DNA from: Jimgerdemannia flammicorona
Taxonomy: Eukaryota
Assembly (NCBI GenBank): GCA_003990765.1
Contig: RBNJ01000267.1
Location: 1 to 34,825 of the forward strand
Direction: 5' to 3'
DNA length: 34,825 nucleotides
The notes under the pieces were generated by a model. It saw only the letters and a list, made by a program, of their open reading frames with translations, searched no databases and had not been told where the DNA came from. The stretch's first letter is position 1; every line of letters starts with the position of its first letter. A program made the translations under genes and the position numbers. This document shows, piece after piece, positions 10,597 to 34,825 of the stretch.

Positions 10597-10965
10597 TTAT
10601 GTATCTTTATATGTTATGCATACCTACTGTACACTAACTAGATTTATTAATTTATAGATAATATATATCAGAAAGAGTGATATTGTATATTTAGTATAAC
10701 TAAAATAGAATGAGATATATACTGAATATAAAACATATTTGTTATTATTAAAGAGAATCTTATTGAGCAAATATTTTATATTATTAGAGAATTTACTAAT
10801 ATGTTCAGAGTTATAAATATCAATTATATATTGTAAGAATTGTTAAAAAGATAAGACCAGTTGATTTTGTCAGAATGATTAGCTTTTTATATTTATTAAT
10901 CTATTCATACTCTGTAAAATTACTATAATCTTTTTGTAATAAAACTATATACTGATAGAATTAAT

Positions 10966-11414
10966 ATGTTATAGATAATCAAGATTGACTATTGGCCCTA
11001 AGTTCAGAGTTCTTGTAAGGAAGTGCTATGTTCCAATTGTCTATTATAGCAGTAAAGTCTACATATCACTTTTGGATTCTTATATTGGTGGTGGAGGTAC
11101 TGTACTTATATCTCAAGTTGATCAGACTCAGAATTGTTAATAAGTTGAATCTGAGAGTTTTTTTTGATAAGAATACTGCTTTATTCTTATAGTTAGAGAA
11201 AGTAAAGCTGAGGTTATAATATACTCAGTATAGAGGATATCTATATAAATTCAAAGCTATGACTAAATATAGTATACTGGGTATATATATAATTATGCTA
11301 TATTTAGTATCTATAACTACTAATTGAAAATTCTATAGAAATTTCTATAAGAATTTCTGTTAAAATTTCTATTGGAATTTCTGATGACTTTTAGGTATAT
11401 AATGATTTATTACA
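10966..11414 (-). mobile_element. Probable 3' LTR of the chromodomain Ty3/Gypsy element (left boundary uncertain)
   Basis: On the minus strand a purine tract (AAAGAAAGAAAGGA, 11415-11428) directly precedes TGTAATAAATC, i.e. PPT plus TG LTR start. Internal GGAATTTC-type repeats. Confidence 0.35.
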
Positions 11415-11817
11415 TCCTTTCTTTCTTTGTCTGAACCTACTTATTAGATTTAGTACTAAACTTTAGATATTTATCAAACTGAAGAGCAGTATACTGAACT
11501 ATTTGAAAGATGATATTACTCTATTATTCATTTAATATTCTCAGAGAATACTCTATAGAGATAGTCAAGAACTTGGAGTTGAGTACAGAAAAGGACATAA
11601 AGTCTTTTAGTAATAATATAAATACAGTTGTTAATGAAAAAGTAGGCTCATATCTTAGTATTAATAAGAGTAGCTTATTGATAGATAAGGCATCTGATCT
11701 CATAGTACTTCTTTAATTTTTATTAATAGTAAAAGATCTGAAAATATTGAATTCTTCTAAGATATTGTTGGACTTCATTTGGGTCTGGATCTTTAGAGAT
11801 TTATATATTGATAAAGA

Positions 11818-12205
11818 TAGTACTCCTAATGAATCGAATTGAATCGAATTTGGCCCAAACTCGATTTGATTCCATCAAATCAAGGGTCCAATTCGATTTG
11901 ATTTGATTTGAATCAAATCAAAGGTCTAATTCGATTCAAAGTTTGATTCAAACCTTAATTTTCAAAATGTAATAACTCGACGAAAACTCATCCAAATTTA
12001 ACATATTTTAGCTTGTTAGATTCACCGTATTAATGTGATTCTAACAAGCTAAAGTACGTTAGATTTGGATGGGTTTACGCTGAGTTATTGCATTTTGAAA
12101 TTTAGGGTTTAAATCAGACCCTCAATTCGATTTGACTTTTGATTCAACTCATTTAACCCTCAATTTGATTCAATTCGAATTGATTTGACTCATTTGGGAG
12201 CACTA
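11818..12205. mobile_element. hAT-type MITE, 388 bp, largely palindromic
   Basis: TIRs TAGTACTCCTAATGA / TCATTTGGGAGCACTA; 8-bp TSD GATAAAGA (11810-11817) vs GATAGAGG (12206-12213), differing only by G/A; subterminal (GAATC/GATTC)n; long internal inverted repeat centred near 12030. Confidence 0.85.
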
Positions 12206-12429
12206 GATAGAGGATAGTTTAGTAGAATTCTATTGATATTCAATAGCTATAAGGATAGTAGTAATAATCTTATTCTTAATTTATTTTAGTGTCTTTGCTG
12301 AGTACTTATATTATATATATAGATTATCTATATAGGATTATTTGGATTATTTATACTTCTCTTCATCTGATGTATTCAGAAGTATGACTGTCTTTTAGAA
12401 ATTCCATCAGAATTTTCATTATACTAAAT

Positions 12430-14820
12430 ATTTATATTGAGTTACTACTTCTTCTATATTTAGCAAAAGGTTATCTTCTTTTTCTCAAATAGTATCATAC
12501 TTAGGATATCCTTTCTATTTTATGAGATAGTATTAGATGAGCTTGGTAGCTCATCTAAATTGGTAGTCATTGTGATCTAAAATATAATTGACTTTATATT
12601 CTAGTTCTTGATTAATAATAATTAGATCTGAGAATAGTATTGTTCTTTCTTCAAAAGTATTCTTAGTATATAGCTAGAGTTAGAATATATGAAACACTAA
12701 GTAGATCTTTTTTAGAGTTGCTAAAAGATCTAACTTATATATAATAGAACTATATTTTTTCAAGATCTTAAATGATCTAATATAGTAGAGTCTAAGTTTT
12801 TTCTTTAGTTCTATATTTTCTAGAGTCAAGTACTGTGTGTTGAGTAATATCTGTTTATCTTTTTTATACATGACTTCTCTTTTATTTTTATTAGTATATA
12901 CTACTTGTGTTCTTTGTACTTTTATAAGAGCATCATATATTTACTAGATAGTATCTTATATAGTATTAGTAACTTTCTATACTACTAATATTATTGCTCA
13001 TATGACAGGTATAGGGGTTCAGGAATATTATCTATAGTTCAGATAGAATAGAGTCATTTTTATACTTATACTTATACTATTATTATATGTAAATTTGACT
13101 AGAATTAATTTTTTATCCCAATTATTCTACTTATAACTATAGTAGATACTAAATATCTGCTTTAGAGTTTGATAGATTTGTTTTGTTTAACTATCTATCT
13201 ATAGATAATAGATAGTAAATATCTTGAGTTTTACTCTTAGTTCTTTAAAAAGTATGTTACTTATAAATTTTGCATCTCTATTAGAGATATGTAATTACTA
13301 ATAGTAATCTATAGAGATAAAATATATTATCAATAAACAATTATACTATTTCTGATATTATTATAGTAGTGGTTATTGTAATGAAGTAAGTCTGCTTGCT
13401 GAGATGATTAATAAAGACAATGATCACATCTCTTCTCTTCTTTGTTTTTAGCAGTTAGATAATAAAGTCTATTCTGATATAGTTTTAATTTTGGATAATA
13501 ATTGATAGTAGCTATAGTATTTCTGCTAAGGCTTGATTACTAGACTTATATCTCTGATAAATATTGTAAGATACGATGTAGTTTTTGATATTAGCTATTA
13601 TCTTGAACTAATAGAAATCTCAGACAATATATTAATATATCTTGTCAAATTCTATATAACTAACTATAGATATATTATATAATTCTTATAAGATTTGCAG
13701 ATAGATAGAAGTGTGGGAAACTCAAATCCTTATATTGTAAAAGTACATATATTTGTTTTGAATAGAAATATTCTTATATATCTTTATAATATTGCTTCCT
13801 TCTTTAAGGATTTGTATGATAATTTTTTATATATTGATATCCTTGATATACTCTTTCTTAACTTCTTCAAATAGGTTAGTAGTGATGTTATTAATTACTA
13901 TAAGGTTATTCTTCTGAGTACTTTAGGAAAGTATATCAGCTACTTTATTCTTAGTACTAGTAATGTATTTGATTTCAACATCAAAGAGTATAAGAATCTG
14001 TATCTATCATACTTGTCTTTCTCTAAGGATCAGTTATATATGAATATATTATAGAGTTTGATGGTCTATTCATAAGGTAAATTTCTTACTAAGAAGAAAA
14101 TATTTCTATAATTATAGAGATTAGATAATAGTAAGAAGTTCATTATCTTATATTGTATAGTTCTTTTTATACTTATTTAGCTTCTGAGATAGATATGTGA
14201 CTGGGTGTTAATGCTGGATCAATATAGCTTCAATAGTAATATTTGAGATATCTGTAGTAATAGTAAAGAGTTCTGTAGAGTCTGGGCTGATTAGGATTGA
14301 TATATTAGTCAGTATTCTCTTAAGGATATTTATTACTATAGTGTATTATTTTATTTATTCTTTTTCCCTTTTGCAAAGACTTGTGAGTGAGGAGGTAATT
14401 GCTGAGAATTCTTGAATAAATCTTTAGTAGTATTCAGCTAATCTATAAAATTTTTATAAAAACTTGAGGGTCTTTAGAATAGACTAGTTGTAGATTACTT
14501 CAGTTATTTTGAGATTAATAGTAATACTATTAGCTGAAATAATATATCTTAGATATTTTATTTCCTTTTTGAAGAAGTAGTATATTCTTCTCAAAGTATG
14601 TTAAAAACCATCTGTAGATATTAACAGTAAGTAGTACTACTTATACTATATATTAGAATATTATTTAAGTATACTAGAATGAATACTTTAAGGTATTTTT
14701 AAAATATATTATTCATTAGTATCTAGAATATTGCTGGTGCATTAGCTAAAAGGCATTATATAGAATTTATAATATTCAAATCTTATTCAAAATACTGTCT
14801 TTGAGATGTCTTCTTCCTTC
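12430..14820 (-). mobile_element. Degenerate chromovirus (Ty3/Gypsy) pol: RT C-half, RNase H, integrase, chromodomain
   Basis: Minus-strand remnants EEDISKTVF, MPF..NAPA.F, VYLNNILIYS (YLDD), TITTDISN, NKVADILS, integrase IDFI..L, and chromodomain YLIK*KGYPKYDTI*EKEDNL at ~12470-12530; many transition-derived stops. Confidence 0.85.
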
Positions 14821-14824
14821 TCCA

Positions 14825-17214
14825 TTGTGGGTGGCTCAGTAGTACACCATTGTCTTTCTATATTTCATTATATAGTACTAGTGATCTTGAGAGCTGTGAC
14901 TATGCTTCATTGACTAGTCATGATACTTCTTGAGTTGGTTTTGGTAAATAGTAGTAGGGATGATTGTGTCTGAGAGTTTTCATAGCCAAAAGGTGGTCTC
15001 TTTTATATCTTACACAAGATAAGATCCTTCCCACTTAGGCTCCAGTTTTCATAATCATGAAGCTTCTACTATATTCAATATACCAGGACCTTGTCTCTTA
15101 TCTTGATAATCTTCAGAAGCTTGTGAACCTTTTCTGCATTATTCCACTATAGTGCCTGTACCTTGGTTATATAATCCTTAGCCTTCTTTCTGATTTGATA
15201 TAGTCTCTGTATTTCTCTATTCATATATTTCCATATAGCATTCTCATTGGATGATAGGGTTTCTTGAGAACTTTCTTCTCTGAACAGTATTTCCCAAGGA
15301 GTGAAATGGGTGCTTTGTGATCAAATATCCCAAAGAGCAGATACATAATACTATTGGTAGATAGTGATCCCAGTTTTTGTAGTTATTACAGATCTTGATG
15401 ATATTATTCTTGAGAGTCTTGTTGGTTCTTTCTGTCTGTCCATTTTCTTAAGAATGGTATGCTGTAGTCTAAATATACTAGATCTTATATCTCTTATAGA
15501 GAACCTCAAAGAACTAGTTCACAAATTCTGTTCCTCTATCTGTGGTTACTTATATTGGGGTCTTGAATTAGCAGATAATTTCTTTGTGAAAGAAATCAGC
15601 AATTGACTGTATATTGGCTTCCTTGAGGGATCCTGCCTCTATCCATTTTATGAAAAGGTCTATAATGACAATGATGTATCAGTTGCTAGTCAAAGTCAAG
15701 GGTAGAGGGCTAATTACATCTATTGTAATGTGAACAAATGATACCAGTTCTATGTGTACTAATCCTGGGACTTGATTTCATTGATCTTGTTTCTGTTTCT
15801 GGTATTTGTCACAGGTCTTGACAAATTATCTGATATCTTCCTCCATTCCTAGCCACCATATTATTCTTCTTGCTTTATTATATATATTCATTCCTCCTAG
15901 ATGGCCAAGTTTATATACTGATTTCATTACTTGCTTCTTCTTGTGTTCTGGTATAACTAGTAGCTTTCCTTTCTTCAATGTTTCTTCATCAGTTTCAAAT
16001 TTTTTCCATTTTCTGTTGATAATCATTTGTATCTATTCTTCCAGATATTGGGACATCTTTCACTGTTCTAGATAGATGATAATTCCATAGTAGAGCTCCT
16101 TATTCATGATTGATTTGCTGGTTAGGGGTCCTTCAATTCTGACTTCAGTGACTCTCCCTATTGTATAGTCTTGTGAGTATCTGGCTATCTAGTATTACTG
16201 AGCATAGATGATCTTCTGTATCAGGTCCAGGACTATTGATGATGAGTAGATGGTCAGGGCTATTTCTGGGTAGATTCTTTTATAAAAGTTACTTCAGCTA
16301 CTTGATCTCTAATAGTGGTAGTATAATCTGCAAGGATTATCTGATATCAGATTCTGGTATAGAATATGTTTGGATCCTTACTAATTTCTTAGCATGTTAT
16401 ATTGAGCTGATTCTTCAGTATCTGCTTGATCTCATCTATGTAGTATGTGGCTCAGAGCCAGGTCTTCTGTGCTGCTAGTATAGCATCATCATCATTTCTC
16501 ACATAGATTATAGCTATAAATACTGCTCTTGCTAATCCTCAGAGACTGAAGGATATGAGAGTTACTTGCCACCTTGCTGTCAGGCCTCTTATAGTGGCAT
16601 ATTGCTTGAAATCATCAATGAAGGTGATGATTGACTCATCTGAAGTATAACTGTAGAATACTGGTAGTCTTATATCTATCTTGTCCAGATATCTTGGTTT
16701 GATTTATATAGTTGTTCAGATGGTAGCAGTTGTTTGTTGTTCAGCTTGAAAGTGAGGAATTCATCTTGAATCACCAGTCAATAGGTACTAAGTTGTAATG
16801 TAGCAGATGCTTAATCTTGGAAGTATATCAGATTTCTGTTTCTTGAAAACTCAATCTTCTTTGACTCTACAGAGTTCTCAAGATATAGAGGTGGGTGAGT
16901 TTAAAGTATATCTACCCACAGGCTTATTAGTTCCTTTACTTTCTCTTTGCTTTGAACTATTTTGATCTGAGGATTATTCACTCTAGATACTGGAGATATT
17001 TATATAAGTTTGCTAGCTATAAGGTAGCTAAGTTATAACTATGTTTCTTGTAAGTCATTTTCTACAAGTATAGATCCTCTATATCTGTAAAATCTCTATA
17101 ATCATGAAGATTCTATATCTGTAGAATTTCTATATTTGTAAAGTTTCTACATTTGTAAAAACATAACTACTATTTATAAGGCTATACTATATCAGGAATT
17201 GGGTTCAGATACCA
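14825..17214 (-). mobile_element. Non-autonomous Ty3/Gypsy-like element encoding Gag capsid fused to integrase, without PR/RT/RH
   Basis: Gag (RLPVFYSYTSDESIITFIDDF...FYTRI...YPEIAL, ~16690-16200) runs into the integrase zinc domain (GHLGG...WWLGMEEDIR*FVKTCDKYQK), the core (IDVISPLP, TDRGTEFVN, NGQTERTNKTL) and GPY/F (KLEPKWEGSY). PBS-like TGGTATCTGAACCC at 17214-17201. Confidence 0.75.
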
Positions 17215-17269
17215 TGATCAAATGTCTAATTCTCCTGATTAATGTTACTAATTCAGATCAGCTTTCATA

Positions 17270-18400
17270 CTAGATATAATAGTTAATTTGTATATTGATT
17301 TTCTTATTAAGATAGTTCTCTGGGTATAGTGACAATTTCATATAATGGTCTTGTATAGCACAATAATCTCTATATAGTATGGCAATCTTCTTATATACAT
17401 ATAATAGTCTAGCAATTTAGTAGTTTTCTTCTTGAGTGATAGGTAATTTTGGTATAGTATAATGATCTTCAAAAGTATGCAATTTCTGACATAATGATCT
17501 TAGTAGACTTCTTTATATGGACTTCTTGATTTGATACAGATTCTCCTGAATCAGTGGCTTATTGAGAATAGAGAATGGTACAGATTCTTCTAAATTGAGC
17601 TCACTGGGAATAGATGAATAACTCAGATAGTACAGATAACTTGAATAACTCAGACAATGTAGATTATTCCTAAATTGACAGACTTCTGAGAATAGCAGAT
17701 AACTTGATAACTTAGATAATGAATTCTTAACAAGTTATATCAAGACTGACTTCATTTGTATAGAGTTACATCATAGACTGGCTTCACTATAAAGTTGCAT
17801 TAAATAGACTAGCTTTATTTATATAGAGTTATGTCAATAGACTAGCTCTACTGCAAAGTTGTATCAATAGACTGGCTTTGGTGATAAGATGGTAGACTTC
17901 TTAAAAAAGAGTGACTTATTCCTTAAGTAGCAGATTACTCAAATGGTGGCTCTTCCTTGAGTAGTAGATTTACTCAAATTCTTCAGGCTTATCTAGTAAG
18001 TAAACTAAGATTTTATATCAGAAAGAGGACTGGAGTAGAAAGGAAATGCTGTTACTTTAGATTCAAATTTAGACTGAGGTTTATTTACTCTTATCTCTGG
18101 AGTATTTTATATATTATGGTTGCTATCTGGTTGCTATCTGAATAATTATAGATTTACTATCTCTGATAATATTTAGATATATCCAAGGACATAAGTGTAT
18201 CCACAGGACATGAGTGTGTCTGTAGGATATAAGTGTGTCTAAAGGATATGAGTGTATTCACAGAACATAAGTGTATCTACAGGACACAGATAAACAATCT
18301 CAATTTGGTATCCTGGCTAATTATAAGTATGGCAGACATGAGTAACTATACTATACTGAGAGTTTATATCATCTGGCTATATTATACTATTTGCTTGTCA
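17270..18400 (-). repeat. 3' LTR of the dUTPase Gypsy element
   Basis: Homologous to 26083-27505. Starts TGACA at 18400 on the minus strand, preceded by a PPT-like AGTAGGGG and a 14-bp hairpin. Left boundary approximate. Confidence 0.8.
18175..18290. repeat. 19-bp tandem array (~6 units, GAGTGTRTCYRCAGGACAT) in LTR U3; also present at 27279-27394
   Basis: Direct reading in both LTR copies. Confidence 0.85.
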
Positions 18401-21400
18401 TATTAGCCCCTACTGAAGAATAGTCGGCCTCAGACTATTCTTCAGTCATTATCCTAATAAGCATAAGCAGCTTCTGCATCTATACCTGTTCCATCATCAT
18501 CACTATCTATACTACAGTCACTCTATTCTAAGGACTTCTCTTCTTTCTTGGGGAATAGGGTCTCAACTTAGTGGATGATACTAAGATAGGTAGATATGGT
18601 TATCTTTTGGAGATCATTCAGGAAGAACTGGGTCTGAATTGAGGCTGAAGGATTCTATTTATAGATTGTATATAGTCTTTCTACAGCAGTAGTATTCCTT
18701 TTGTTTAGGCCAGTGGTGTTGCAGACATAGGTCAGGTCTGGGAGGGGAAAATTCTATAACTATTCTCCAATTATATAGTAGACCTATAGCTGGCAGACCT
18801 GGAGTAATCTCTTGGCCAGGGTGAGGTTTTCTTGATGAATCCAGATTCTTTGAAGATATGTTCCATTGGGTTCTTGAAACTGTGGCAGAGGAACTGGTAG
18901 AGCTTGGAAGAAACTGAGGATAAGAGTCTGGTGGCAATTGTCAATTCACTGATTCATAGTATGGGAAAGGTATATTTTGAGGCAATTGATATATACTGAT
19001 ATCCTCAGAGTTTATCTATTTATACTTCTTAAATAGATACTAGTTCCTCTGGTATTATATATAAGATAGAGTTCTTCTCATTTGAGCTCCAGTTTGACAG
19101 CAAAGTTGTTTTGATTATGCTTCTCCAAACTAGTACTTGATCTCCAATTTTGATCTTCTGATCTTTTGCTTCTGATCATAGTACTTCTTTTGTCTTTCTT
19201 GGACTTTAATAATCTGAACTTAGGCTTGATTATATAACTATTCTGTCTTCTTAAAGAGGTCTCTGAGGTTATCATAGTCAGTAGTTTTGATTTCTTGGTA
19301 AATATTATTTCAAAGAGCTTTTGTTTAGTGAAGGCAGTAGAGATGTTCCAAATTTCCCATAGAATCTCAGATAAGCAGAGGTCCCAGTTGGTAGAATTGA
19401 CTTGGACAAGTTCTTTCTTGATGGTCTGGTTCATTCTTTCTATTATACCATTGATCTGAGAGTGATATAATGTGGTCTATTTGAGGTAGATCTTGTGGAT
19501 TCAGATATAACTTATTATTATGTTGTTAATGAATTCTGTACCTCAGTTAGAGATAAGTTCTTTTAGGAGTCTATATCTGAGTGTAAGTCTATGGAGAAGG
19601 CCTACAATAATCAAGACATCTGTGATTTCTATTAGGAAAGTCTCAGGCCACTTAGTCAGATATTCTACAAATATAAAAATATACTTATTTCTTCTTGGTA
19701 TAACTGGTAGGAGTCCAATTACATCTACTCACTATCTCTAAAAGATATTGTCTGATGATATGATTGATTATAGTGGTACTTGGTAGTTCTTTCTTTCTTA
19801 GTACTTCTGACAGATATCATATTTCTAAAGTATATTCTAGACTTATATTCTGAGATTGGGCCAATATTAGTAAGTTGTTTGCAGCTTTTCTTTTATATTT
19901 ATCTGCCCTTAGTGGACTTTCTGATGTTCTTTTCAGATGAGATCTTCTTGTGCCTTGATAGTTAGAGAAGCTTTATTTAGGATATAGTTCCTCAATATAC
20001 CTCTCTTCTGATTCATTGAGGTTGGTGAAAAAGTACATCAACATTGTTGTAAGCTTTTTCTGCTTTATAGATGATAGTAACTTAGTAATCCTGAAGGATA
20101 AGAATCCAGTAGGCTAGGATTCCAGTGGATTTCTTATAGTTAAATATCTATTTGAGGGCTGTATGATAAGTTATCAAGATGAATCTTTTTCCAATAAGGT
20201 AATGCTTGAACAGAGTGACCACCCATATGACTGTAAGGCATTCCAGTTTGGTGCTACTATAGTTGATTTGCTGCTGATTGGTTGCCTAGCTTATATAAGC
20301 TATAATATAGTACTATTGATCACATCCTTCTTAGACTAAAACTGCTCTAAGACCATCTTTGGAGACATCTGTGTACAAGATGAATGGTTTCTGTAGATTG
20401 AGATATATAAGGATTGGGGCTGTAGTTATGTAATGCTTGAGTTTCTTGAAGGCTTTCTCTTGTAATTCTGTCTATTTGTAAGGTACTTCTTTCTTGAGAA
20501 GGATTCAGATTAGGGCAGCAATTTGGGCAAAGTTCTTGATAAACCTTCTATAGTAGGATACTAGTATCAGGAATGATAATATTTCCTTTGAGGTCTTGGA
20601 TACTGGCCAATTGTTGATCTTCTTAGTTTTCTTTAGATCTGTATAAGTTTCTTCTTTTGAAATTATTAATCCAAGGAATTCAAGTTTCTGTTTCCCAAAG
20701 TAGCATTTTTTGGCATTAAGTCTCAGGTGGTTCTTATGGGTGAGCTTGAAAAATTCTTTTAGATAGTGCAGGTATTCCTTAAAATTTGCTAAATAGATAT
20801 TGGAATTGTTCATATATACAATTAGACAGTAGTGGATCAGGGAGATATAGACCAAATTCATCATTCTCTGAAAGGTAGGGGGTATATTGCAAAGTCCAAA
20901 GAGTATTCAGAGATATTCAAACAGTTTTCCTAGAGCAAGAAGACTGTTTTCTAAATGTCTTTGGGATCCATAGAGATCTTATAGAATTCTGTGAAAAGGT
21001 CCATACTGCTAAAGTATCTGGTATCTTATAACTGGTCCAAAAGATCATCAATTCTAGACAAAGGATAGACATTCTTTTCAGTTACTGAATTGAGTTTTCT
21101 ATAGTCTATATAGAGTCTCCATCTATCTTTTTTTGATATGTACAATAAGTATAGAGCTGGCCCAAGGGCTTATAGAGGGTCAGATGACTCTATTGTCTAA
21201 GAGTTCTTAAATGTACTTCTTTTCAAATATCTTTAGGTGATGGAGTATTCTATAGGATTTCTGCCAAATAGATGTTGCCTTTCCTGTATTGATACTGTAG
21301 TAATATGATGAGTTATATGGCAGATTGCCATAGTCTGTGGTAAAGATATCTTGATATTTATTGAGGAGTCCAACTAATTGTTATTATTGCTGGGGTGTTA

Positions 21401-21782
21401 ATTCTTCTCCAATGTTAGTGGAAGGCTTTACTATCTCTTGGGTTACAGAGGGGCCTTTTATTTCTTCTGAGACCTTTTGCTGTTTCCTGATAAGTTTAGT
21501 TCATAAACTTCTCTATGAGTTTGGTTGAGAAAAGGCACCAGATATCCTATGATGGTTCCTTTTAACAAGATGATGATTTCCCAACTCTGGTTGATTGCTT
21601 GGGAGTATACTGGATTCATCTTATCAGAGCTTCTATGTTCAGATTTTGGATATCTTTATTGGGTTCAAAGAAGAGATTTCTGGGATTGGGTGGTACAAAG
21701 ATTTCAAAGGTGGTTCACTCTCTAGACTCCAGAATGAGATTTCTGTACAGTTTGAATAGTTGGTTAGAAGACATTTTTTCTT

Positions 21783-22190
21783 ATCTGAGCTTTCAAATTC
21801 TTTGGCTTGCCTTATTCCTTCAGTTAGTTTGGAGACTTCTTATAATTGTAGGGTCTTGACTTTCATGAAGACTGCTTGAGCAATCTTGCTCTCTAATAAT
21901 TTGGTGTCATTTTGTACTACTGTTATGCAGAATAATCTTGATTTTGTTTATATATTCAGGGTCTATAGTTTTTCTTTCTATGGTTATTTCTTGTCTGCTA
22001 AGCCCAGATCTTGAGGTTAGCTGGATATAAGTTCTTTGGGATGGCTGTATAGCTAGTCTGGTTCTGAACATCAGTATTCTTCCAGACATAATGGATTTAT
22101 CCTTCAGACTATAGAGGTCATACCCTATATCTTCTTGGTGAGCTTTGGTCAGGGGTTTGGCCTTGGGATATAGCAGAGTATACTGAGAAA
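21783..22190 (-). pseudogene. dUTPase domain within the Gypsy pol
   Basis: Motif I DIGYDL, II SRSGL, III TIDPEYINKIKIILHN, IV SKIAQ, V RQAKEFESSD (RxxxGFGSS with G>A changes); one frameshift and stops. Confidence 0.88.
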
Positions 22191-25100
22191 CATCTTTGCT
22201 AAGTTCAGGCTATCCTTAGACTGAAGCTCTACTGGCAGGAAGTCTCCAAGCTCTGAGGTTGAGGTGTGGCCATCTGGCTTCAGTAGAGAGATCTTAGAGA
22301 TAATTGATTTCTCTTTTTCCTATAGGGTCTAGGGCTTCTATGAAGTTGGTGGCATCCTCTATCCATTCTTGGCAGGTTGTATATCTGATAAGAGCTAGGA
22401 TGTCTTTTTTCAAATTATAGATCTTAAGAGTTCTTCTTCCTGATTTCTTGATTTGGCTTTTTCAGATTTGATCTCTATTATCTCCTCTCTTTAAGGTGTG
22501 AATTGCAACATCCTGGCTGAGGTAAATCTTCTAATATCTGCAGTCTTAGTAGTCTGAGTATCTTCCATAGTTTCAATATCCCATTACTCAAAAATGCTAT
22601 TCCTGGTTATTGATTTCTTATTACTTTGGAAATCAGTATCTATCTTAATCATAGGTTGGGGAAAGGGTGGCCAAGAGATATACTTCTGTTTGGGTAAAGA
22701 GACCTTATCCTCTAAATTGGCTTTGCAACTTAGTGGTGACTTCTTAGAAGGTGGTTAACTATGTAACTATAGTTGGGAGTTCAAATCTTCAGAGTCTCTG
22801 TCTTTCTTATTGATCCAGTAGATAGTACTGATAGTAGTAGTCTTGGAGAGAGTAGAAGACCATTTGATATAGATATTTTCTTAGCCTGAAGGCTCTTTCT
22901 TGGTGAGTTTCTTACTTGGAAATAATGGGGATTATGCTGGGTCCTTCCTCAACATTCCAAGGGTCATTGTCTTCAGGTGGTATCCAGTGAGAGTTATCCC
23001 AGGGAATGAGTTCAGGAACTTCTTCCTCTTTGGGTATTTCTTGTTTAGGAATCTCCTGTTCAGGGGTTTCTTCTTCCTCAGATGATTCTTGACCCCAAAT
23101 TGCTTATACTTCTGCAGCTTTAGCTGCAGGTATCTTTGGAACAAATCTGTATTTCTTCTTCTTTCTTCTGCACTCAGGGTAGGCTACACCAGGCGAATTC
23201 CTTGTCTCAATGATCTTGAATGAGTGCTCAGAGCACTTGTGTCTCTTGAGGCAGGTGGGGCATTCTTTGATTTCTCCTGCAATGGCTCCAATTGTGATAG
23301 AGATAGTATTTCTGGTTCATATATTATCTTCTAGTCTATTATTCACTAGATTGATTTGGAATTGAGTCTGAGATCATTTCTATCTTCAGATTCTTCTTTC
23401 TCTTCTGTGGTAGATTCTTTACTACTAACATATTCTTTCTGAATAGTAACCTTTTTCTTCTTCAATTGCTTATAGCTGGTTATCTTAACTCTGTACTTCT
23501 TATCTCAGTAGTCAAACTTGAGCACTTGTTGACTAATATCAATAACTGCATTCATTTCCTTCATCCAGTTGGTGCCAAGGATTATGTCATAGGTGACAGC
23601 TTCAGTGACAACAGCTTTTGGGATAGAGAACTAAATATATTCAAGAGAAATAGTAATATTTCATACTTCTTCAAGAGATTGAGTTTAGGCTTCATCTGCT
23701 ACTATGATGCTGAAGTTAGATGGTCCATCAATGGGCCATTGGAGGGTGTTCAGAAATTATTTGGCAATAACACAGATAGCTACTCCTATGTTTATGAGGA
23801 TTTTCACCTTTTGTCCTCTAATATCTCTATATAGATAGGTACTGACATATCTTTCTGCAGTCTGGATAGGGGTGAGAACTGGTTCCTACTATGGGATTGA
23901 GACTTGGCCAGTGCTAGACCTGATAGTTCTCAGCAGTTTGTTTTAGACTCTAGCTGGTGTTAGTTGTAGGAACTACAGGAGAGAGCCTTCTATATTAAAT
24001 TCTTAAATCTTCTACTAGGCTTCATTGTAGATGTCTCTGGATATAGTCTTCAGGGTGTACTTCTTTTTGGGCTTTAGGGCAGTAGGTTCCTGTTCTTCTT
24101 GCTCTATTTCTTCATCCTCTAGGGGTAGCTTATTTGTTTTAGAGACAAAAGATAAGAGAGACCAGAGAGGTGTTTCTACTTGCTCCTCTTCATATTCTTC
24201 ATCTTCTTCTTAAATTCTTTTACTAGTATTCCTAGATGGTCTTTCTATAGGTCTTTTCATTTTCTCTACTGGGTAAACTGTCTTTCAGGTAATGACTTTG
24301 GCTAGGTACAAGTCCAGATCACTGTAGTCTTTACTATTGCTTTCTCTTTCAAAATCTTTAACAGAGTGAGCCTCAGTCTTCTTGTACTGAGTATCATTCC
24401 TTCAGTTTAGTAGTTCTGAGTCTTTTTGGTCATTTCTTTTATTATTACATTCAGTGATATAGTGTCTGAATTGTCCACAGTGAAAGCATTGGACTTAGGC
24501 TCTATTCTAGACAGAGTATCTTCTTTCTTCTTATTAGTAGCTTCTGTTATCTCTAGGTAGGTAACCTTGATTCCTCTGTAGTAGATATTCTCTGTTATCT
24601 TATTGATAACTCCAATTTTTATATATGGTGAGTCTTTTAATCTATCCAACCAATTTGTCTAACTTGGAACTAAGGTCTTAAATTTTGCTCCTTCTTTCCT
24701 TCTTTGGCTGACTTTCTTTCTTCAGATCTTTCCTATTCTTGAAGAAGTCCTTATAGAGCTTTGACCAGGGTGTCTTCTTTCTTATTCTTCTTATTATAGT
24801 CACTCCAGATTCCTTGTCTGATATCAAAAAATCCTTGGGCTATATCTACTTGTTTCTCAGACCTTCTGATGTCTAAGATGCTAGAATTCCATTCATGAAG
24901 GTTATTGGACCTATGATGTCTTAGTTGGTAGTATTGAATCTGACTATATGTATTCTCTTCTGGATTCTTATAAAGAAGGCTCTGGGCAATTCTCCAAAAT
25001 TCATCTTCATTCTTATGATGGATTCTTGAGCCTTATGGCAGATCTCATTTTCTGTATACTTCTTGATAAGCCAGTGGGTTATGGCTTAATAATCTGCTAG

Positions 25101-26082
25101 TCAAGTTGTTGCTACAATGATGGCTACTCTAAGGTCTGAGTTTGGATCATTACTTGCTTAGGTAAAGATTTCTTTGACTAGTTCTCTGAGTTAGGCCTTG
25201 TAGATAGTAATTTTTCTTTCAGAGATAAGGTTTTTCAGAGCTGCAATTCCTTCTATTCCATCAAGAAATTCTCTTGGATCTTCTTTAGAATATTCTGCAA
25301 AGGTTGGCAATGAGATGGCCATTTCATCATCAGTATCTTCTGGTTCTGGTTCTGGTTCTGATCCTAGTGCTGAATCTGATTCTGATTCTGATTCTAATTC
25401 TAGTACTGATTCTAATTCACTTTCTGAGTTATTGCTAGAGTTCAGAATACTTGGATATCTTAAGAATAGTATTGGAGATCTTGGGCAAGATGGAATAGGT
25501 CTGGATATTCTTAATGAAGCTATTATTTGATCTTCCTGTTCTATAGTAGCTAGTGGTAGAGAGTCAATGAGTGAAATTGGTGGGTCTCTTGTGGGAAATC
25601 AGGCTCATTCAATGAGGTCTTGAAGTTGTTATGCTAACTCATCAAAACTCTAGCAGGGCTGTCTATATGATCTTGTTGATGTTAATCCTGTAATAAGTCT
25701 GTTGGTGCTGGCTAGGGATTCTATACTGTACTGACTTCTGGTTGGGATCCTTCTGAAGCTGAGTAATTGGCAAGTCTGGAGGTAATTACTTCTCTTTCTA
25801 TCTAAATGCTGGTGATGACTGGTTCTCCTATAGTAGTAGAGATTGGTGTTTTATCAAATATATCCAGTTTGACTATGAGTTCTTGTGAGCTGAAAAGTCA
25901 TGTCAATTTTGAAATCTTTCCAGTTGAGCCCCTAAATATAATATGTCTGGCTCAATGGAGGTAAATTACAAGGTTGAGGGTTGATGTAGTTTGGTTTGAG
26001 CCCCCAGTTACTTTGTTAAAAGCAACAAAATATTCTAAGATTCCTGGTATTCTTATTGGTATTTAGTGGTATAATAGTCAAT

Positions 26083-27505
26083 CTAGATACAATGGTCAAT
26101 TTTTATATCAATTTTCTTATTGAGATAGTTCTCTGGGTATAGTAGTGATTTTATATCTCTTTGACTATAGATAAGATCATCTTTTAAAATCATTTAGCAG
26201 ACAAATTAAAGTTTGAAAAAAATGATTTTTTGAAACATTTTTTTTCTGTTAAAAATATATCTCAATTTGTTTAAAAACAATTTTTTTTTTTTTGTAAAAT
26301 TTTTACCAAAGGTAGAATTATTATATAAAAAATTATTGGTAAATTTTTTTTTAAAAACTATTATGATTTTAAAAGTTATAAACTTTTAAAATCTTACCTC
26401 TAAATATAGGTGCAAAATAGTCAAAGGGATAACAGTCTTATATAGCATGATGATCTCTATATAGTATGGTAATATTTTTATGCATAATGGTCTAGCAATT
26501 TAGCAGTTTTCTTCTTAAGTGACAGATAATTTCAGTATAGTATAACAATCTCCAAAAGTATGCAATTTCTGATGTGATGATCTTAGCAGACTTCTTTATA
26601 TGGACTTCTTGATTTGGCATAGATTTCCTGAATCAGTAGCTTACTAGAAATAAAGGATAGTGCAGATTCTTCTGAATCAGGCTCACTGGGAACAGATGAA
26701 TAATTTAGATAGTATGAATAACTTGGATAACTCAGATGATGTAGATTCTTTGACTTCTGAGAATAACAGATAACTTGATAACTTAGGTGATGAATTCTTG
26801 GCAAGTTATATCAAGACTAGCTTTATTTGCATAGAGTTATATTATAGACTAACTTTATTGTAAAGTTGCATCAGATAGACTTTTTGAGCAAGATTGTATC
26901 AAGACTGGCTTTGTTTACATAGAGTTATCTCAATAGACTGGCTCTACTGTGAAGTTGCATCAATAGACCAATATACTGGCTTTGATGATAAGATGGTAGA
27001 CTTCTTGAAAAAGAGCAGCTTATTTCTTAAGCAGTAGATTACTCAAATGGTAGCTCTTTCTTGAGCAGTAGATTCACTCAAATTCTTCAGACTTATCCAG
27101 CAAGTGAACCAAGGCTTTGTATTGGAAAGGAGACTAGAGTGGAAAGGGAATGCTATTGCTTTAGATTCAATTTTGAACTGAGATTTATTTACTCTTATCT
27201 CTGAGGTATTTTATACATTGTGGTTGCTATCTAGTTTCTATCTGGATAATTATAGATTTATCATCTCTGGTAATGTTTGAGTGTGTCTACAGGATATGAG
27301 TGTGTCTATAGGACATGAGTATATCTGCAGAACATGAGTGTATCTACAGGACATAAGTGTGTCTGCAGGATATCAATGTATCTACAGGACACAGATAAAT
27401 AATCTCAATTTGGTATTCTGGCTAATTATAAGTATGGCAGACATGAGTAACTATACTATACTGGGAGTTTATATTATATGACTATATTATATATACTATT
27501 TGCTT
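26083..27505 (-). repeat. 5' LTR of the dUTPase Gypsy element, interrupted by a MITE and clipped by a LINE tail
   Basis: Colinear with 17270-18396; homology ends at ATACTATTTGCTT, where a poly(T) begins. Confidence 0.8.
26157..26428. mobile_element. 272-bp AT-rich MITE with 12-bp TIRs
   Basis: CTCTTTGACTAT ... ATAGTCAAAGGG (1 mismatch). Absent from the other LTR copy, whose empty site implies an AT dinucleotide duplication. Confidence 0.8.
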
Positions 27506-29270
27506 TTTTTTTTTTTATAATCACTCAGACTTCACCATTTATTACTAGTCTATTGATATAGTTACAGTATCTCCTCTCACTACCCAATTCCCATAGGGGA
27601 GTCTCCCCCCACACCTTCATGTTTGAAGACCACTTTACTACCTACTACCTCAACTCTTCTCTCACTCTGCACACAGATTTTCTCTACCAAACAATACCTT
27701 TGACCACCCTGTAGGCCCCAACTAAGCCACCAGCCCATAATAATGTTCTCCATCAGTTCTTGCTATCTCAACAGTCACACTCTCAAACCCAGGCTTCTCT
27801 CTTCCTCAAAAACAAACAATCAGTAACCTGCTAGCCCCACCTAAACTACTAATATCCAACCTAAAGTAAGTCACTCCTTACTCACCCCTCTCACCAATCT
27901 ATCTCTCAAATCCTCCCACTGACCCCACTCACCATCCCCCCTATACACAATACTCAATCAGTCTCCAACTACTAGCCAAAAGTCACTAAGTATCTCACAC
28001 TCTCCTAGTCAATATTCTGGTATCTGTACAAAACCCCCTTCTTGTTCTACATTGTGGTACTCCTCACAGTCAAAGCTTCCCCCCTTAATAAGGTGTCCTA
28101 AGTGAAAGTTAAGCATAATATTCCTCTACACCAGATCACTCAGTACTTTAATGGCAGCCACTGCCTTACCTCAGCACTCTAGGCCCAAATTCCATTCCAG
28201 TCTCACTCCTCTCTGATGTCTGCCAACTGCTAACCACTGGGCCATAGATTCTGTCCTGGCCCCCTCTGGTACTCAAGTCTATTGCTAATATCAAAATCAA
28301 CTAGAGAGATATCTCCTAATAACACTTGGTCTCATCTCCATATCACTGGGTCCCAAGGTACCTCTTCTTCATTTCCCTGCCAGTAAATTTCAATATAGTG
28401 TACCCCATCCACTATCCCCCACCAGAAGCCTTTATACTACATGTACTCATTGTTCTGAAGTCCAACTAAGGACAGTAGATCTTCTGTAGAGCCTCTTAGC
28501 AAGGACCTCATCTCTCAGACCTTCTGCATCAGAAGAACCCAGCTACCTCCTTATAACTCCACCACTCTCTTCAGCCACTATGCTCTCAGACAGTACAGTC
28601 TCTTTGGAAAATCAACCAGCCCAAGGCCCCCTCTAGCTATCAGTAAAGACAAGACCTCCCAGCTGATCTGACTCCTTCTCTCAGCCCAGATCTACCCCTT
28701 GGCTAGTTTCATCAGTCTCTTCACCACCCAGGCCAGGAAGTCCAGGTGATAAGTCAAATACTATAACTTCAGCAGCCAGTAGATGTTCAAAATCGAAACA
28801 TGCCCCACCAGAGACAAGTGGTATCCTCCCCAACTCTACAGAGCCTCCCCCCAGATTACAACCCTCTACTTCCACCAAGGTCTCAATAGGACTGACCCAT
28901 ATACTGGCAGACAGATACTCAAGTACTGCACTGTCTCTCCAGCAGGGACAATTATTCCAATGATATCTCCTCCCATCAGACCATTGCCTAATACCATCAT
29001 TTCACACTTATACTAATTGAGTTTAGCCCCAAAGTGCACCTCATACTACTCCACTGTCTCCTTGAGCTCCTTGACATCAGTGATTGATCTCAGGCCAACT
29101 ACCATGTCATCTATAAAGGCTCCAACTTTCCACCCAATTCCAAAAACTGAGAGCCCAACTATCTTCTGCCAAATCCTGTCCATCAAAGGCTCTAAAGAAA
29201 GAGCATATAGAATAGAGGACAGTGGGCCCCCCTGGAGCACACTCCTATCCATATTATACTATTTGCTCAG
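27504..29270 (-). mobile_element. 5'-truncated L1-clade non-LTR retrotransposon (RT C-terminal part to poly(A) tail)
   Basis: VLQGGPLSSILYALSLEPL, AFIDDMVVGL and ISWEVLSLLIARGGLGLVDF on the minus strand; poly(A) tail at 27504-27516. Confidence 0.85.
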
Positions 29271-29274
29271 TATA

Positions 29275-30205
29275 ATATATATAGAGAGCTACTATTCTTA
29301 TTATAGATAAAGAGAATTGGTACACAATATGATAATTTTGATAGATATATGGGATCTTTATTTGATAGGTTTGCTAACTATTTCTTGAGAGTCTCTAGCT
29401 TAGACTGAGCTAGTTAGTAAATTCTATAGTAGAGAGAATCTGCTCTTAGAGTGATATTAATATTATATTTTACTACTCAGATAGATAGTAGTTCTTGGAG
29501 TTCTTAAAAGACATCTTTGTAGTCTTTGAAGACTTTCTTCTTTATTGTCCTCATTCTTTAATAGTTTAAGATGATTGTCATTATCATTATCTTCTGCTAG
29601 TAGCTTCTTAATAGTATATATAGATATGCTGCTCTAGTTTCCAGATTAGCTTTTTTATTTGAATAACAGAGAAGATGTTATACTTAGGTTTCATTTTCTT
29701 CTTAATCTGTTCTAGCTATAGCTTGATGTATTCTAGAGAGATTATATTGATTCATCAGTCAATATATATATTTTCTTAAGTAAGCCAGAATTTTCCATAA
29801 ATGAGATTATATTTAAAAAGATGCACAATGTAAAAGATCTGCTTTATAGTATGTTTCCTAGTTGTAGGAGTGTGTTCTTATGATTTTAAAGAGTTTCTAA
29901 GTTGTTTTGTTTTCAAATATAGCAATATTTCTTTCTGGATTTTTTTGTATCTTGAGTCTGAACTTGTCAGTAGTCTTTTTGTTAAGATATCACTTGCTTG
30001 CTCTACTGTTGATAAGGACTTCAACAGGGTTTTTTTCAATTTTCTCTTGTAGGTAGATGTATTCAAAGTTGCCTTCTTATTAGATGACAATTGTTTCTAG
30101 CAAGACTTCTTCTTTCCAATCTTATATATCTCTATCTTTATTATTGATATTTTTGATTTCTTCATTTTATCATTCTGGAATGATTGGCTTGAACTTTCCA
30201 GATTT
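29275..30205 (-). mobile_element. Highly degenerate Ty3/Gypsy protease and RT N-terminal fragment
   Basis: VEVLINSRAS (=LIDSGAS), YNLIYGKFWL (=YDLILGxxWL), and PILFIYNKNSS (=PxLFVxKKDG) near 29300. Confidence 0.7.
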
Positions 30206-30207
30206 AA

Positions 30208-30209
30208 GA

Positions 30210-30240
<31 letters not shown>

Positions 30241-30245
30241 TATAG
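30208..30245. repeat. (TA)n microsatellite at the LINE 3' end
   Basis: Direct reading. Confidence 0.85.
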
Positions 30246-33200
30246 TCACTTAGATATTATCTAAATTTATCTAAATATATTATGAATACTACACACCATC
30301 ATAACCACTAAGAATGCTAGGAAGAGGCTAACTGATCACCCTGAGAGCCAATTAACTAACACCTTCCTTTTATCAGACCTCTCTATCATCCAACACTAGG
30401 TATCCTTGACTCCATTACATAATATCCTGTACCTTCTGCAAGGTCCCCAGCTGATACCACTTCCTCTGATACCACTACCCTTGTACTACCTCCCAGAGGA
30501 GCCACCTTCATTGCCCTACCAATTTGCCAATTCTCATCTATAGATCCTGCTCAAACACCTATCACCAATATATAGCTATTAGGATCCAGACCCCTAAAAT
30601 CTAACCCAGATCATCCCAAATATCACTAATCTTCTCCACTAGTCACTATTTAACCACAAGACCAGTGGGATCCTCTGGCCTCCTACTCTCAGAGCTCCAA
30701 TAACCTTCCAGAGTCTGCTAATATCCTTCAACACTAGGACAAGCTACCAGGATATACTCTAGTATCTGAACCACCTCCCTATCAATCTTACTATATCCCT
30801 CATAATCCCAATAGCCATCCATCTTCATTCATCTCATCCAGTAGCTAAGCATCACATTTCTCCTCAAGAAACACCACTATACTACCCAGTACTTAGGGGG
30901 CACAATCTTAAGTAAAGAGGCCCTCCAACTCTAGACACATCCCCACTCCTAGCCTTCACTAAGGCCAGCCTTCTACCAACTAACAGACCAACTCTCAAGA
31001 GGGCCAGACCTGATTCATTCCATCACCTCACCTAGCAAGTACTCCTTCAAACTATGGCCACCAATGTAGAGGTTCTTTAGTTACTACTATTTCTACTCAG
31101 AATTCTCACCCTCACTCATCTCTAGTCCCACCAACCCTATGGCCAGCCAAGCCTCTATAATGCTCTCTTATACTGCAATTTACTAATACTCTCCACCTGA
31201 AGCAAACTCTGTATATTCTTCCAAACCTCACTACAGAGACAGAACCTGACTTCCCAATTGTCTATAGCCAGTCTGCCCCAACTATCCTCCCTCAGCTCTA
31301 CCAATCACTGCCCTTACCAATCCCTGAGCACCTTCAACCACTACTGGAAGTTCACCAAATCCAGACTGCTATCTACTGTTTACATCACTAAGGTCTTCCA
31401 ATAAATCTGTGGCCACCTCTCTTACCAAATCCAGACTGCTATCTACTGTTTACATCACTAAGGTCTTCCAATCAATCTGTGGCCACCTCTCTCACCAAAT
31501 CCATCCTTCTACTATCTTCTTTAGCTACTATACCACTCACCTGAGAAAGTCAAGGTAGTACTCCAGATACTATAACTTGAGCAGCCAATAAACATTCAAG
31601 ACTACTATCCTACTTACCAAAGAGAAGCTTCTTTCTGACCACCCCATCAAAGCTCCTTCCTACTTCTATATCATACTATTCCACCACTCCTTCAGCAGTA
31701 ATATTCCATATATAGAGAACTAAATATCCAGATATTGAACTGCTTTCTCTATAACCACAGTCTGTCCAAATTGTCCATCCCCTCTCAGCCTAGTACTAAG
31801 TTCCATTATCTCATACTGTCCTAATTTAACTTCACTTCTGCCAGTATTTTATACTATCCAACTCCATTCTGCAAAATGTCCACATCTGTCATATAACCTA
31901 ATTCCACCACTATGTCATCAGCAAAAGCCCCCAACTTCCAGGCTATATCTTCCATCAGCAGTATATCAGTAAAGGCTCCAAAGAGAGTATATAGAGGAGA
32001 GGGAAAAGAGGATCACTCTGCAGCACACCTCTCTCCAATACAACTCAGGACCACTCTACCCATTCATCAGTATAGCTACCTAGCAGTCTTGTACTAGACC
32101 CATTAGTCTCCCAGCCTCTACTATACTGAACCCCACCTTCCACAGTACAACTTCCAAATAGTTCCACCACACCCTATCATAGGCCTTCTCTTAATCCAAG
32201 AAGACCATTTACCCATCCACCTGTTGGCTTCTGCAGCTTTCTAGGATATTCTGTACCCAAGCAGTACTGTCTCTAATCTGCCTCCCTTTGATAAAACTAT
32301 ACTGCTTCTCACCAACTAGCCTGCTAATCCACTGCTGCATCCTCTCAGCCAGAATCTTAGAGACCAACTTCCTATCCACATTTAGCAGTATGATGAGTTG
32401 TCAATTCTGCCACACTCACTGATCACTTTTTTTCTTATACAGTAGAGAAACCAATCCTAAGGAGCCATTACCAATCCAGCTGCTCTCTTTCAAAACATAG
32501 TTTGCCATCTCTACTAATTAGCTACCAAACTCAATCTGGAATTCCTTCCAGAATTTCCAGGGCAACCCATCCTCTCCAGGTGATAAACCCATCTACACTT
32601 CTTGCAACACCTCTAGCACCTCTGCCAAAGATAATACTCTTATTACTGCATTACCCATCTCAGGCAATACTGCTACTGGCCAATAGTGCACTATATTGTC
32701 ATTGTCCTCCTGAAGTGCCCCACCCTCTACAGGCCCCCCTTCATCTTGCCAGAGAGCCTGCCACTGCTCTGAGATCTCTTTCAATATTTTAGCAATCCCT
32801 GAGACCTCAATACCATTCTCTTGCAAGACAGAGGCCCAGCTGTGCCACACTCTCCTAGTCTTCAAGACACCAGATAGATATTTAGTCAGCCACTCTCCTT
32901 TCTCCAGCCTCCTAGCCCATAGCCTAGCCAGTAGGCCATCCATTACCCTGTTCTCTGCTGCCCTTAAGTCTGACTATAGCTCCACCACCTCAGCAGCTAG
33001 CCAGCAGTATGTCTCCTCAGACAGATTCTCCCCTTCCATCTACTTCAGTTGCCATTATAGCCCATACTTGACCCTCCTCTCCTTATCCTTCTGCTTCTTT
33101 CCTGTCATCTCTCCAATATCTCACCAGTAAGTATCTGCCAAGTACTTGAATTTGTCTCACCATTCTGCTATCAACTATCTGTCATTCTGTCATCACCTCA

Positions 33201-34825
33201 ACTCCTGCTTAGTAATGACTACAAACTGTTCCCTTTCTACCTTTCTTCTGAGTAAAGCTATATTGAGATACTAATGCCCTCCACCACCACTAGCTGCTCG
33301 AAATCTACCACACACCTCTACCCCTCAATGAGCTAACCAAGGACACCACTATATCTCTATAATATTCAGAACATTGCTCCAACTCTCAGCTACTAGTATC
33401 CCCACTAATCCATTACCAACCAGATGCCATCTAGTGAAGGGCCCTGGTCTCTCCCTCTGATACTGTTGAACACCATCAACCAATCCTATATTCTGCTCCA
33501 CCTGAAGCTATTGAGATATTTCAGCAGAGACTACTGCTCCTGCTCTACCATCAGACCTATCCAGAGCTCTATTCTGTACTATATTGAAGTTCCCCCCAAG
33601 AATGTCTATTCCAACTGCCTCTTATCTCTCCCAAGCCAGCCAGTCCTCCACTCATTGCTTTCACTCTCTACCAACTACTGGGAGATAAACTGAGTCTACT
33701 ATCAATTCATTACTAGCCCTCTCTCACAATCTGCCCCACACCAACCTACCACTATAAATTTCGACCTCTACTAGCTCACCTCTGCCCACTCCAACCAATA
33801 TGCCCATCTGCTCATTCCAACCAGTTTCACTATACCATTCTTTGCTTCATTCTTCATAGTCCTGCTCACTATAGGTCTGAATATTCTAAAGAAATACAAT
33901 ATCATACCTCCTGACTTTAAGCTATTGAAACAGTTACTGCCACTTGACTCCTTCATACAGATCATTGATATTGAATAATAAAATATGTAAACTGTTCATC
34001 ATTATCATAAAAATTATTTAAAGCTCTACTGAGTCTATCACCATCTTCTCATCTCTGCCCTGATGATTTTTTTCTAATCCTCACAGATAACTCTTCAGAT
34101 ATAATTGCCATTAGTACTGCTACAGAAAAAGTCCACCTGCTCAGATGCTACCTTCCTGATAGCTGTCATTCTCTTCTCATTAACATCATACCCCTCATTC
34201 TCCAAAAACACTGCCACTATTGCTGTTACTAACTTCAGCTCCTGTATTACAACATTAAGGAAACCCTTCCACACCTCCTGAGAACTATGAAATACATCCA
34301 CTTCCTTGATGTCCTCTTCCACAAGTTCCTCAAGTATAGCCTGATACCAATCATCTGCTGTAGCCACTAAGGGCCCTGGAGTAGTAGGCCTGAAGACCCT
34401 ATTCAGCTCCTGCAGTAACTCTCTATTAGCTAAGACATCCAAGACATCCAAGGCCACCTTCACTAAGTCATTCTCCTCAGTAGTCTTCTCCAGCCATACC
34501 TTACCTACTTCAGGGCACCCCTAATATACATTAGCAGTCTCAGCTATGTGGGTGTCCTCTGTCTGAGTCTCTCAACAATACATGTATCCTCAAAACCCCC
34601 TACCCCCACCTCCTTCTTATTAGCCCACTTTCCCTTCACCAGTATATGAACTGAGCTCTCCACCCCACTCAGTTGTAAAAAGGACATCTTGGCTGCTTTC
34701 ATCTCTTCTATCTGATCCTTGGCAGCCTCAGCTCTCACTACTGCCTTCTTAGCTGACTCCTGGAGGACTGTCTGAGGTACTCTCAGTTTGCCTTCCTCTA
34801 TCTTCTCCTCTTTTCATCCATTTTT
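30243..34825 (-). mobile_element. L1-clade LINE (ORF1 C-terminal part, APE endonuclease, RT, zf-RVT), degenerate, extends beyond the window
   Basis: RT motifs *QLIILLNVDRKLVSKILAERM, LD*EKAYDRV, GVLQSDPLFPLLY, AFADDIVV; zf-RVT-like LEYILVACP near 30745; ORF1-like 34095-34463 upstream; endonuclease-like region ~33300-33950. Confidence 0.85.
31354..31503. repeat. 70-bp tandem duplication inside the LINE
   Basis: Units start at 31354 and 31424 and differ at 2 positions; bounded by ACCAAATCCA, which recurs at 31494. Confidence 0.9.

Follow-up and report, generated by a model that had tools for sequence, protein, structure and literature searches.

Why does CpG vanish abruptly near position 10,600 of a fungal contig, and what process removed it? 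The window analysed here, a stretch of 34,825 nucleotides (contig RBNJ01000267.1 of Jimgerdemannia flammicorona, assembly GCA_003990765.1), passes at that point from unique, gene-bearing DNA into a block of transposable elements (TEs). A first-pass annotation of the window had suggested that a repeat-targeted C>T process resembling repeat-induced point mutation (RIP) first saturated CpG in this block and then eroded CpA/TpG. Indeed, the damage is directional (C>T on one strand, G>A on the other), confined to the TE block and CpG-saturating, and it extends past CpG, as seen both at conserved pol residues and between the two long terminal repeats (LTRs) of one element. The context of the loss differs from that of classical RIP, following the order CpG > CpA ≈ CpC >> CpT, and we think that it probably reflects deamination linked to cytosine methylation.

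The CpG void and its boundary

A sliding-window count gave 632 CpG on the gene side (1-10600), an observed/expected ratio (o/e) of 1.11 at 46% GC, versus 18 CpG in the block, an o/e of 0.024 at 35% GC. The edge is abrupt, because the two 200-base bins that meet at 10600 (10401-10600 and 10601-10800) have 45% and 19% GC; the rightmost gene-side CpG lies at 10568. The earlier description of CpG as common before and nearly absent after this point was thus accurate. Twelve of the 18 CpGs in the block fall within 11835-12176, in a miniature inverted-repeat transposable element (MITE), and the other six are at 13574, 18425, 23194, 28794, 33299 and 33762; all but the one at 23194, which had been overlooked, were correctly listed before. 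From 12181 to the window end, 6 CpG are observed whereas base composition predicts about 683, and even the two C-rich segments with long interspersed nuclear elements (LINEs) hold 1 and 2 against 88 and 162 expected.

The block contains three Ty3/gypsy relics, two LINEs and the MITE, which is unmutated. The elements were placed by Pfam scans of six-frame translations (X at stops) and by tblastn with homologs, and the gypsy and LINE relics all lie on the minus strand. Throughout the block the surviving cytosines sit disproportionately before T. Every 1-kb bin between 12181 and the window end has an o/e of 1.30-1.64 for CpT together with its complement ApG (CT+AG), compared with 0.77-1.02 for the bins of the gene side, and T follows 42-60% of the cytosines that survive in the TE bins, versus 23% in the genes. 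These values are derived rather than native, because an intact relative from the same gypsy clade (L001, a 100% match to P0001) has a CpG o/e of 0.75 and a CT+AG o/e of 1.04. Classical RIP is recognised by a high TpA/ApT and by a (CpA+TpG)/(ApC+GpT) below about 1.03. In the block these indices are 1.02 and 1.25, respectively, and are not RIP-like.

The host was suspected to be an early-diverging fungus and not a member of the Pezizomycotina, and comparison of the endonuclease III gene bears this out. Its first exon (2329-2871) is 97% identical to NTG1 of J. flammicorona (Endogonales, Mucoromycotina), and the next relatives, from Mortierellomycotina, share 38-62% identity. The excerpted text of one review puts the J. 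flammicorona genome at 240 Mb, more than 77% of it repeats (PMC10386755). Another NTG1 protein of this species (P0050, 422 aa) shares 95% identity across exon 1; its gene is on a separate 12160-base contig and may come from another strain or be a haplotype or paralog.

An assembly chimera at 10.6 kb was also considered. It is unlikely: the gypsy relatives belong to Mucoromycota, and the gene side and the TE families occur in the same sequencing runs. Among the contigs of these runs (X1 and X2, two sets from a related organism that contain 0.30 and 0.18 of the sampled window words), none was at least 99% alike to the window and none spanned the boundary. Directly left of the boundary, at about 10515-10585, lies a CpG-rich short tandem motif resembling GATGTCCGCGATGCA.

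Direction and context of the cytosine loss

One element of the block, gypsy A, carries an internal clock. Using blastn and purine/pyrimidine-coded blastn, we found a 1.05-kb direct repeat that flanks the genes of gypsy A; its copies are therefore the LTRs of this element, identical at insertion (Table 1). Over the 1039 columns supported by blastn, to which the comparison was confined, the pair shares 84.9% identity and differs by 149 transitions and 8 transversions (a transition/transversion ratio, Ts/Tv, of 18.6). A looser alignment (1116 columns, 27 transversions) was discarded, as its 77 extra columns were poorly aligned and supplied 19 of the 27 transversions. The transition load far exceeds the transversion load; therefore it does not scale with transversions in the manner of passive decay of 5-methylcytosine (5mC), the explanation against which the first-pass annotation had set its own.

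To obtain a per-copy probability of cytosine loss, columns intact in both LTRs were compared with those mutated in one, with C or G taken as the original state at transition columns because the direction of change at conserved pol sites is 95:2. A 3' T protects the cytosine. For CpT, 145 columns are intact in both LTRs and 9 mutated in one, a per-copy loss of 0.03, whereas the corresponding figures are 72 and 77 for CpA (0.35; p = 3e-20 versus CpT) and 37 and 37 for CpC (0.33; p = 5e-14 versus CpT). For CpG they are 0 and 24 (1.0), which correspond to 12 sites where one LTR reads TG and its partner CA. The earlier proposal of CpA/TpG as the second target after CpG was therefore right as far as CpA is concerned, but CpA is not alone in this tier, as CpC/GpG is lost equally and CpT/ApG is spared. 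The context figures are alike on both strands, each LTR carries both C>T and G>A changes, and the +2 base has little effect (0.02-0.06 throughout for CTN). All four NCG contexts were wholly lost (ACG 7, CCG 7, GCG 3 and TCG 7), and no 5' preference at mutated CpG is visible because every class is saturated.

Conserved pol residues reveal the direction of change. We scored codons with at least 8 aligned homologs of which at least 60% agreed on the residue, dropping the rest. The three gypsies together showed 95 changes of the C>T/G>A type, 2 in reverse and 44 of other kinds, compared with 335, 220 and 1457, respectively, when homologous proteins were scored alike. Gypsy C accounted for 39.5 one-step changes of the C>T type and no reverse change at 135 conserved sites, and gypsy B for 10 against 1 at 48 sites. 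Sense-strand C>T and G>A changes were about equally frequent (19.3/22 in gypsy A, 17.5/22 in gypsy C and 6/4 in gypsy B). Where the conserved residue determines the context, mutation had struck 12 of 21 CpA, 4 of 15 TpG, 8 of 30 CpC and 6 of 36 GpG sites, compared with 2 of 102 for reverse changes. Of the catalytic motifs previously noted as ruined by transitions, YLNN (from YLDD, 14660-14671, minus strand) and the YMNN and NIGV of gypsy A (Table 1) were recovered, and premature stops replace well-conserved residues as had been described (TAG for W at 20474, TAA for Q at 20333 and 15450 and for R at 14426, and TGA for R at 14009). The ratio of C>T changes to transversions, about 2.6-3.3 in all three gypsies, could be taken as scaling with age; we rejected this interpretation, since transversions counted against a consensus of distant homologs mostly reflect divergence between families, and since the ratio for the LTR pair is 18.6.

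The LINEs behaved differently. A word index of LINE homologs returned 3 matches and a profile-free search 150, and the same scoring counted 13 changes as forward, 8 as reverse and 23 as other, with 2 of 49 determined non-CpG sites mutated. Compared with their closest relatives, the LINEs show R>Q, R>stop and R>W, all CpG-type changes. Conserved arginine codons that still encode arginine are exclusively AGR, both in the gypsies (11 of 11) and in the LINEs (6 of 6). The hypermutation that had been described for the block as a whole thus reaches beyond CpG in the gypsies, whereas the LINEs have lost their CpG with little other damage.

Other copies of these families were available in X1 and X2, whose contigs match them at 80-95% likeness. 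Relative to X1, the window has A/T where the other copy has G/C at 79 positions and the opposite at 40, with 17 transversions; for X2 the numbers are 116, 100 and 58. Because these differences run both ways, each TE copy bears transitions of its own. The context could be read for 26 transition differences, a non-random sample from 11.4-11.7 kb among the 40 differences listed out of 365. Fourteen are of the CpA type, 10 of the CpT type and 2 of the CpC type, and none of these 26 restores a CpG in the other copy.

Probable methylation-linked deamination and its rivals

We consider it probable that the C>T footprint arose by methylation-linked deamination of TE heterochromatin, through enzymes of the DNA methyltransferase 1 (DNMT1) superfamily. 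TE cytosines would be methylated by a DIM-2-like enzyme, possibly together with a CG maintenance enzyme, and the methylated cytosines would turn into thymine by spontaneous or enzyme-assisted deamination. The 3' neighbour would set the probability of methylation, highest at CG, then at CA and CC, with almost none at CT. CpG would then disappear entirely and each copy would lose roughly one in three CpA and CpC cytosines, whereas those in CpT would persist and come to dominate. Methylation would also be limited to transposons and stronger on LTR elements than on LINEs, leaving genes untouched and LINEs with mainly CpG loss. Both 5mC as the intermediate and the identity of the methylating enzyme are what we infer from this pattern.

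The published record supplies a close parallel. According to the excerpted text of work on Zymoseptoria tritici strains with Dim2, TEs carry 5mC at about 43-61% of CG, 10-22% of CA, 3-8% of CC and less than 0.01% of CT sites, and Dim2 makes C>T changes in repeats more frequent in mitotic divisions (PMC8016269). As presented there, that process likewise affects TEs only and consists mostly of C>T changes, and the order in which contexts are methylated (CG > CA > CC >> CT) agrees with the order in which they are mutated here. Because the context order equals this published preference, methylation-linked deamination accounts for the data no less well than strict RIP does. The available part of a survey of Mucoromycota places DIM-2-like homologs in Endogonales and Glomeromycota and treats RID as exclusive to Pezizomycotina (PMC9963178). 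Nearer to J. flammicorona, Phycomyces (Mucoromycotina) is credited in the excerpted account with DIM2 and DNMT1 and with CG and CHH methylation of TEs, stronger on LTR than on non-LTR elements (PMC11258239), a difference that parallels the heavier damage to gypsies than to LINEs in the window. CG methylation of TEs is also reported for Rhizophagus irregularis in the portion of PMC8647823 at hand. As described in these two sources, these fungi share with our case the phylum, a targeting of 5mC to TEs (here presumed) with a bias towards LTR over non-LTR elements, and the sparing of genes; the sources document methylation, whereas the J. flammicorona window shows a mutational footprint.

Several observations weigh against this explanation. 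In the same excerpts on Z. tritici, an ascomycete with RIP, new Dim2-linked mutations fall at CA, and CG, although most methylated, is not highly mutated (PMC8016269); in the window, loss at CG is complete and CC is hit as often as CA, which means that the agreement lies with a methylation preference and not with the Z. tritici mutation spectrum. One review, in its excerpted text, gives the preference of DIM-2 as CpT, the opposite of the pattern here (PMC13297926). The MITE keeps a CpG o/e of 1.4 inside the block, and if methylation spreads over the domain, this element must be a very recent insertion. The sparing of CpT is weaker in the 26 readable differences from 11.4-11.7 kb, and the LINE result comes from few determined sites. 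Methylation and a DNMT role in J. flammicorona are, moreover, deduced here from DNA sequence.

True RIP is the next candidate, and a considerably less likely one. It would act in homology-triggered, probably premeiotic bursts on duplicated DNA above a length threshold, here with a CpG > CpA ≈ CpC >> CpT preference, and a DIM-2-like enzyme might execute it, much as Neurospora has a RIP pathway that does not need RID. The canonical preference of Neurospora RIP is CpA. A Ts/Tv of 18.6 at only 0.8% transversion divergence between the LTRs does indicate a very intense C>T process, damage is repeat-confined with a sharp edge, and the MITE, at 346 bp, is short enough to have stayed below a length threshold. 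In one LTR, C>T and G>A changes also form fewer strand runs than expected (28 versus 37.7, P = 0.014, a comparison in which local base composition is not controlled), but the other shows no such clustering (44 versus 41.7). Transition-dominated repeat divergence, as expected of classical RIP, was found in both the LTR pair and the pol sites; a CpA>TpA preference was not, as the loss at CpA is no higher than at CpC and below that at CpG. RIP in Neurospora crassa runs through RID and, in the excerpted account, also through a Dim2/Dim5-dependent pathway, which would favour RIP here (PMC12543289). Neurospora RIP and the present case have in common C>T/G>A hypermutation of repeats with a sharp edge towards unique DNA, stop codons, ruined catalytic motifs and the escape of short repeats, whereas the context order and a RIP index of 1.25 separate the two systems. 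RID itself is confined to Pezizomycotina in the survey text cited above (PMC9963178), and RIP signatures went undetected in Mucoromycotina according to the relevant passage of PMC8647823, citing Venice 2020. The LINEs, repeats in the same block, bear little non-CpG damage, and no result here points to duplication dependence.

The remaining explanations are all unlikely. CG-only maintenance methylation of the DNMT1 or DNMT5 type could have erased CpG, with AT-biased neutral decay of old pseudogenes accounting for the remainder. It would fit the loss of CpG throughout the block whatever the element, the almost purely CpG-type loss in the LINEs, and the TE methylation at CG documented in the excerpts on Rhizophagus (PMC8647823) and Phycomyces (PMC11258239). 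Ordinary decay, however, cannot yield the Ts/Tv of the LTR pair, a 10-fold gap of CpA or CpC over CpT, or 95 forward against 2 reverse transitions, and for the gypsy elements the idea is contradicted; we hold it improbable. Slightly less credible still is an inherited share of the void, with families that had lived long in a genome with CG methylation and were CpG-poor while still active. The exclusive use of AGR among surviving conserved arginine codons and the lack of any restored CpG among the 26 readable differences (from the 40 of 365 listed) would agree with this, but the 12 TG/CA sites of the LTR pair are CpGs that were present at insertion and lost later, the gypsy and LINE copies show R>stop, R>Q and R>W relative to relatives, and the intact relative L001 retains most of its expected CpG. 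APOBEC-like editing of retroelement cDNA during reverse transcription, suggested by the many catalytic-motif changes that are sense-strand G>A, is the least plausible of all, since C>T and G>A occur at similar frequency on the sense strand, each LTR bears both kinds, the 3' neighbour decides on both strands and the differences between the LTRs postdate integration.

Mutational genome defence in fungi is regarded as a trait of Dikarya. A 2015 study by Amselem is said to describe CpG-biased TE hypermutation in basidiomycetes, with a TpCpG bias in Microbotryum and rusts. The basidiomycete pattern shares with ours a loss of CpG to TpG that is limited to TEs, in a fungus presumed to lack RID, whereas here all four NCG contexts are fully lost, a saturation that would hide any 5' preference, and CpA and CpC are heavily mutated too. 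Decay driven by 5mC and Dim2-linked mutation are known already; what is new is the lineage and the combined spectrum, with CpG saturated, CpA equal to CpC, and CpT spared. Neither RIP-like nor CpG hypermutation of Endogonales was described in anything that our literature search returned, although a remark in the Endogonaceae genome paper (doi 10.1111/nph.15613) is possible, and the supplements of PMC10538959 make no mention of Jimgerdemannia or Endogone. Early-diverging fungi are described, in the excerpted text of one review, as having largely replaced 5mC by N6-methyladenine (PMC13297926).

The pattern suggests that a RIP-like genome defence linked to methylation exists outside the higher fungi. 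Whether Endogonales run an active, repeat-directed C>T mutator through a DIM-2-like enzyme, with CpG > CpA ≈ CpC >> CpT, is a more tentative matter, and we think it doubtful at present; if true, RIP-type mutational defence would predate Dikarya, and RID-dependent RIP would be a later specialisation of an ancestral DIM-2 pathway. In any event, the transposons of this one Mucoromycotina genome bear the marks of intense C>T change in specific contexts, which standard RIP indices do not pick up. A simple index, a CT+AG o/e of at least 1.3 with CpG near 0, could be used to scan Endogonales, Glomeromycotina and other DIM-2-bearing lineages. LTR pairs offer a built-in clock for rates; with both the pairs and the CpT-sparing index, the question of how DIM-2-linked repeat mutagenesis arose can be tested directly.

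Elements of the block

Table 1. Position and strand of the boundary, the block and the elements identified within it.
Feature	Position	Strand	Remarks
Abrupt boundary from CpG-normal unique DNA to CpG-free TE block	10569..10600		Last CpG and GC drop
CpG-free, CpT-enriched transposon block	10601..34825 (window end)		CpG o/e 0.024; CT+AG o/e 1.30-1.64 from 12181 on
Palindromic MITE	11835..12180		Arms 11916-12030 and 12031-12144 (79.5% identical); escaped mutation
Gypsy C relic: reverse transcriptase (RT), RNase H, integrase, SH3	12668..14819	-	Most eroded element, GC 24-25%
Gypsy B integrase relic	15346..16005	-	Integrase_H2C2 and rve matches
Gypsy A 3' LTR	17342..18396	-	Direct repeat of 26429-27505
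Gypsy A internal region	18397..26428	-	Protease, dUTPase, RT/RNase H, integrase
Gypsy A integrase	19141-19914	-	
Gypsy A RT/RNase H	20031-21416	-	YMNN at 20805-20816
Gypsy A dUTPase, between protease and RT	21907-22155	-	Pfam E = 1e-8
Gypsy A protease	23514-23816	-	NIGV at 23781-23792
Gypsy A 5' LTR	26429..27505	-	Direct repeat of 17342-18396
LINE1 RT relic	28539..29270	-	
LINE2, RT with intact FADD at 31914-31925	31105..33159	-	CpG-free, GC 43-44%, little non-CpG C>T damage

The MITE has 12 CpG where 8.5 are expected, with a CT+AG o/e of 0.64 and a TpA o/e of 0.47. Contigs of run X1 pile up at 11002-12335, with a summed word depth of 941 over 11002-11668 and of 42 over the MITE bin; by this contig depth, an abundant or expressed short repeat family adjoins the MITE. 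As for gypsy A, one of its database relatives (P0037) likewise lists a dUTPase (PF00692). A segment of 74 bases at 26083-26156, outside the main repeat, matches 17270-17343, which leaves about 272 extra bases at 26157-26428 on the 5' LTR side; these are an insertion or an internal duplication.

In the LINE region (27901-34825), both elements have a strongly skewed sense strand. The plus strand of LINE2 is 32% C and 12% G, so that its sense strand is G-rich and C-poor, and among unchanged four-fold codons 26 end in G and 9 in C; the skew may be native to the family. LINE2 also contains a tandem duplication at 31354-31511, with a 70-base offset and 94% identity over 88 bases. On the gene side, a perfect palindrome of 32-34 bases, in which a homopolymer run of T gives way to one of A, occupies 8404-8437 upstream of an open reading frame for a membrane protein.

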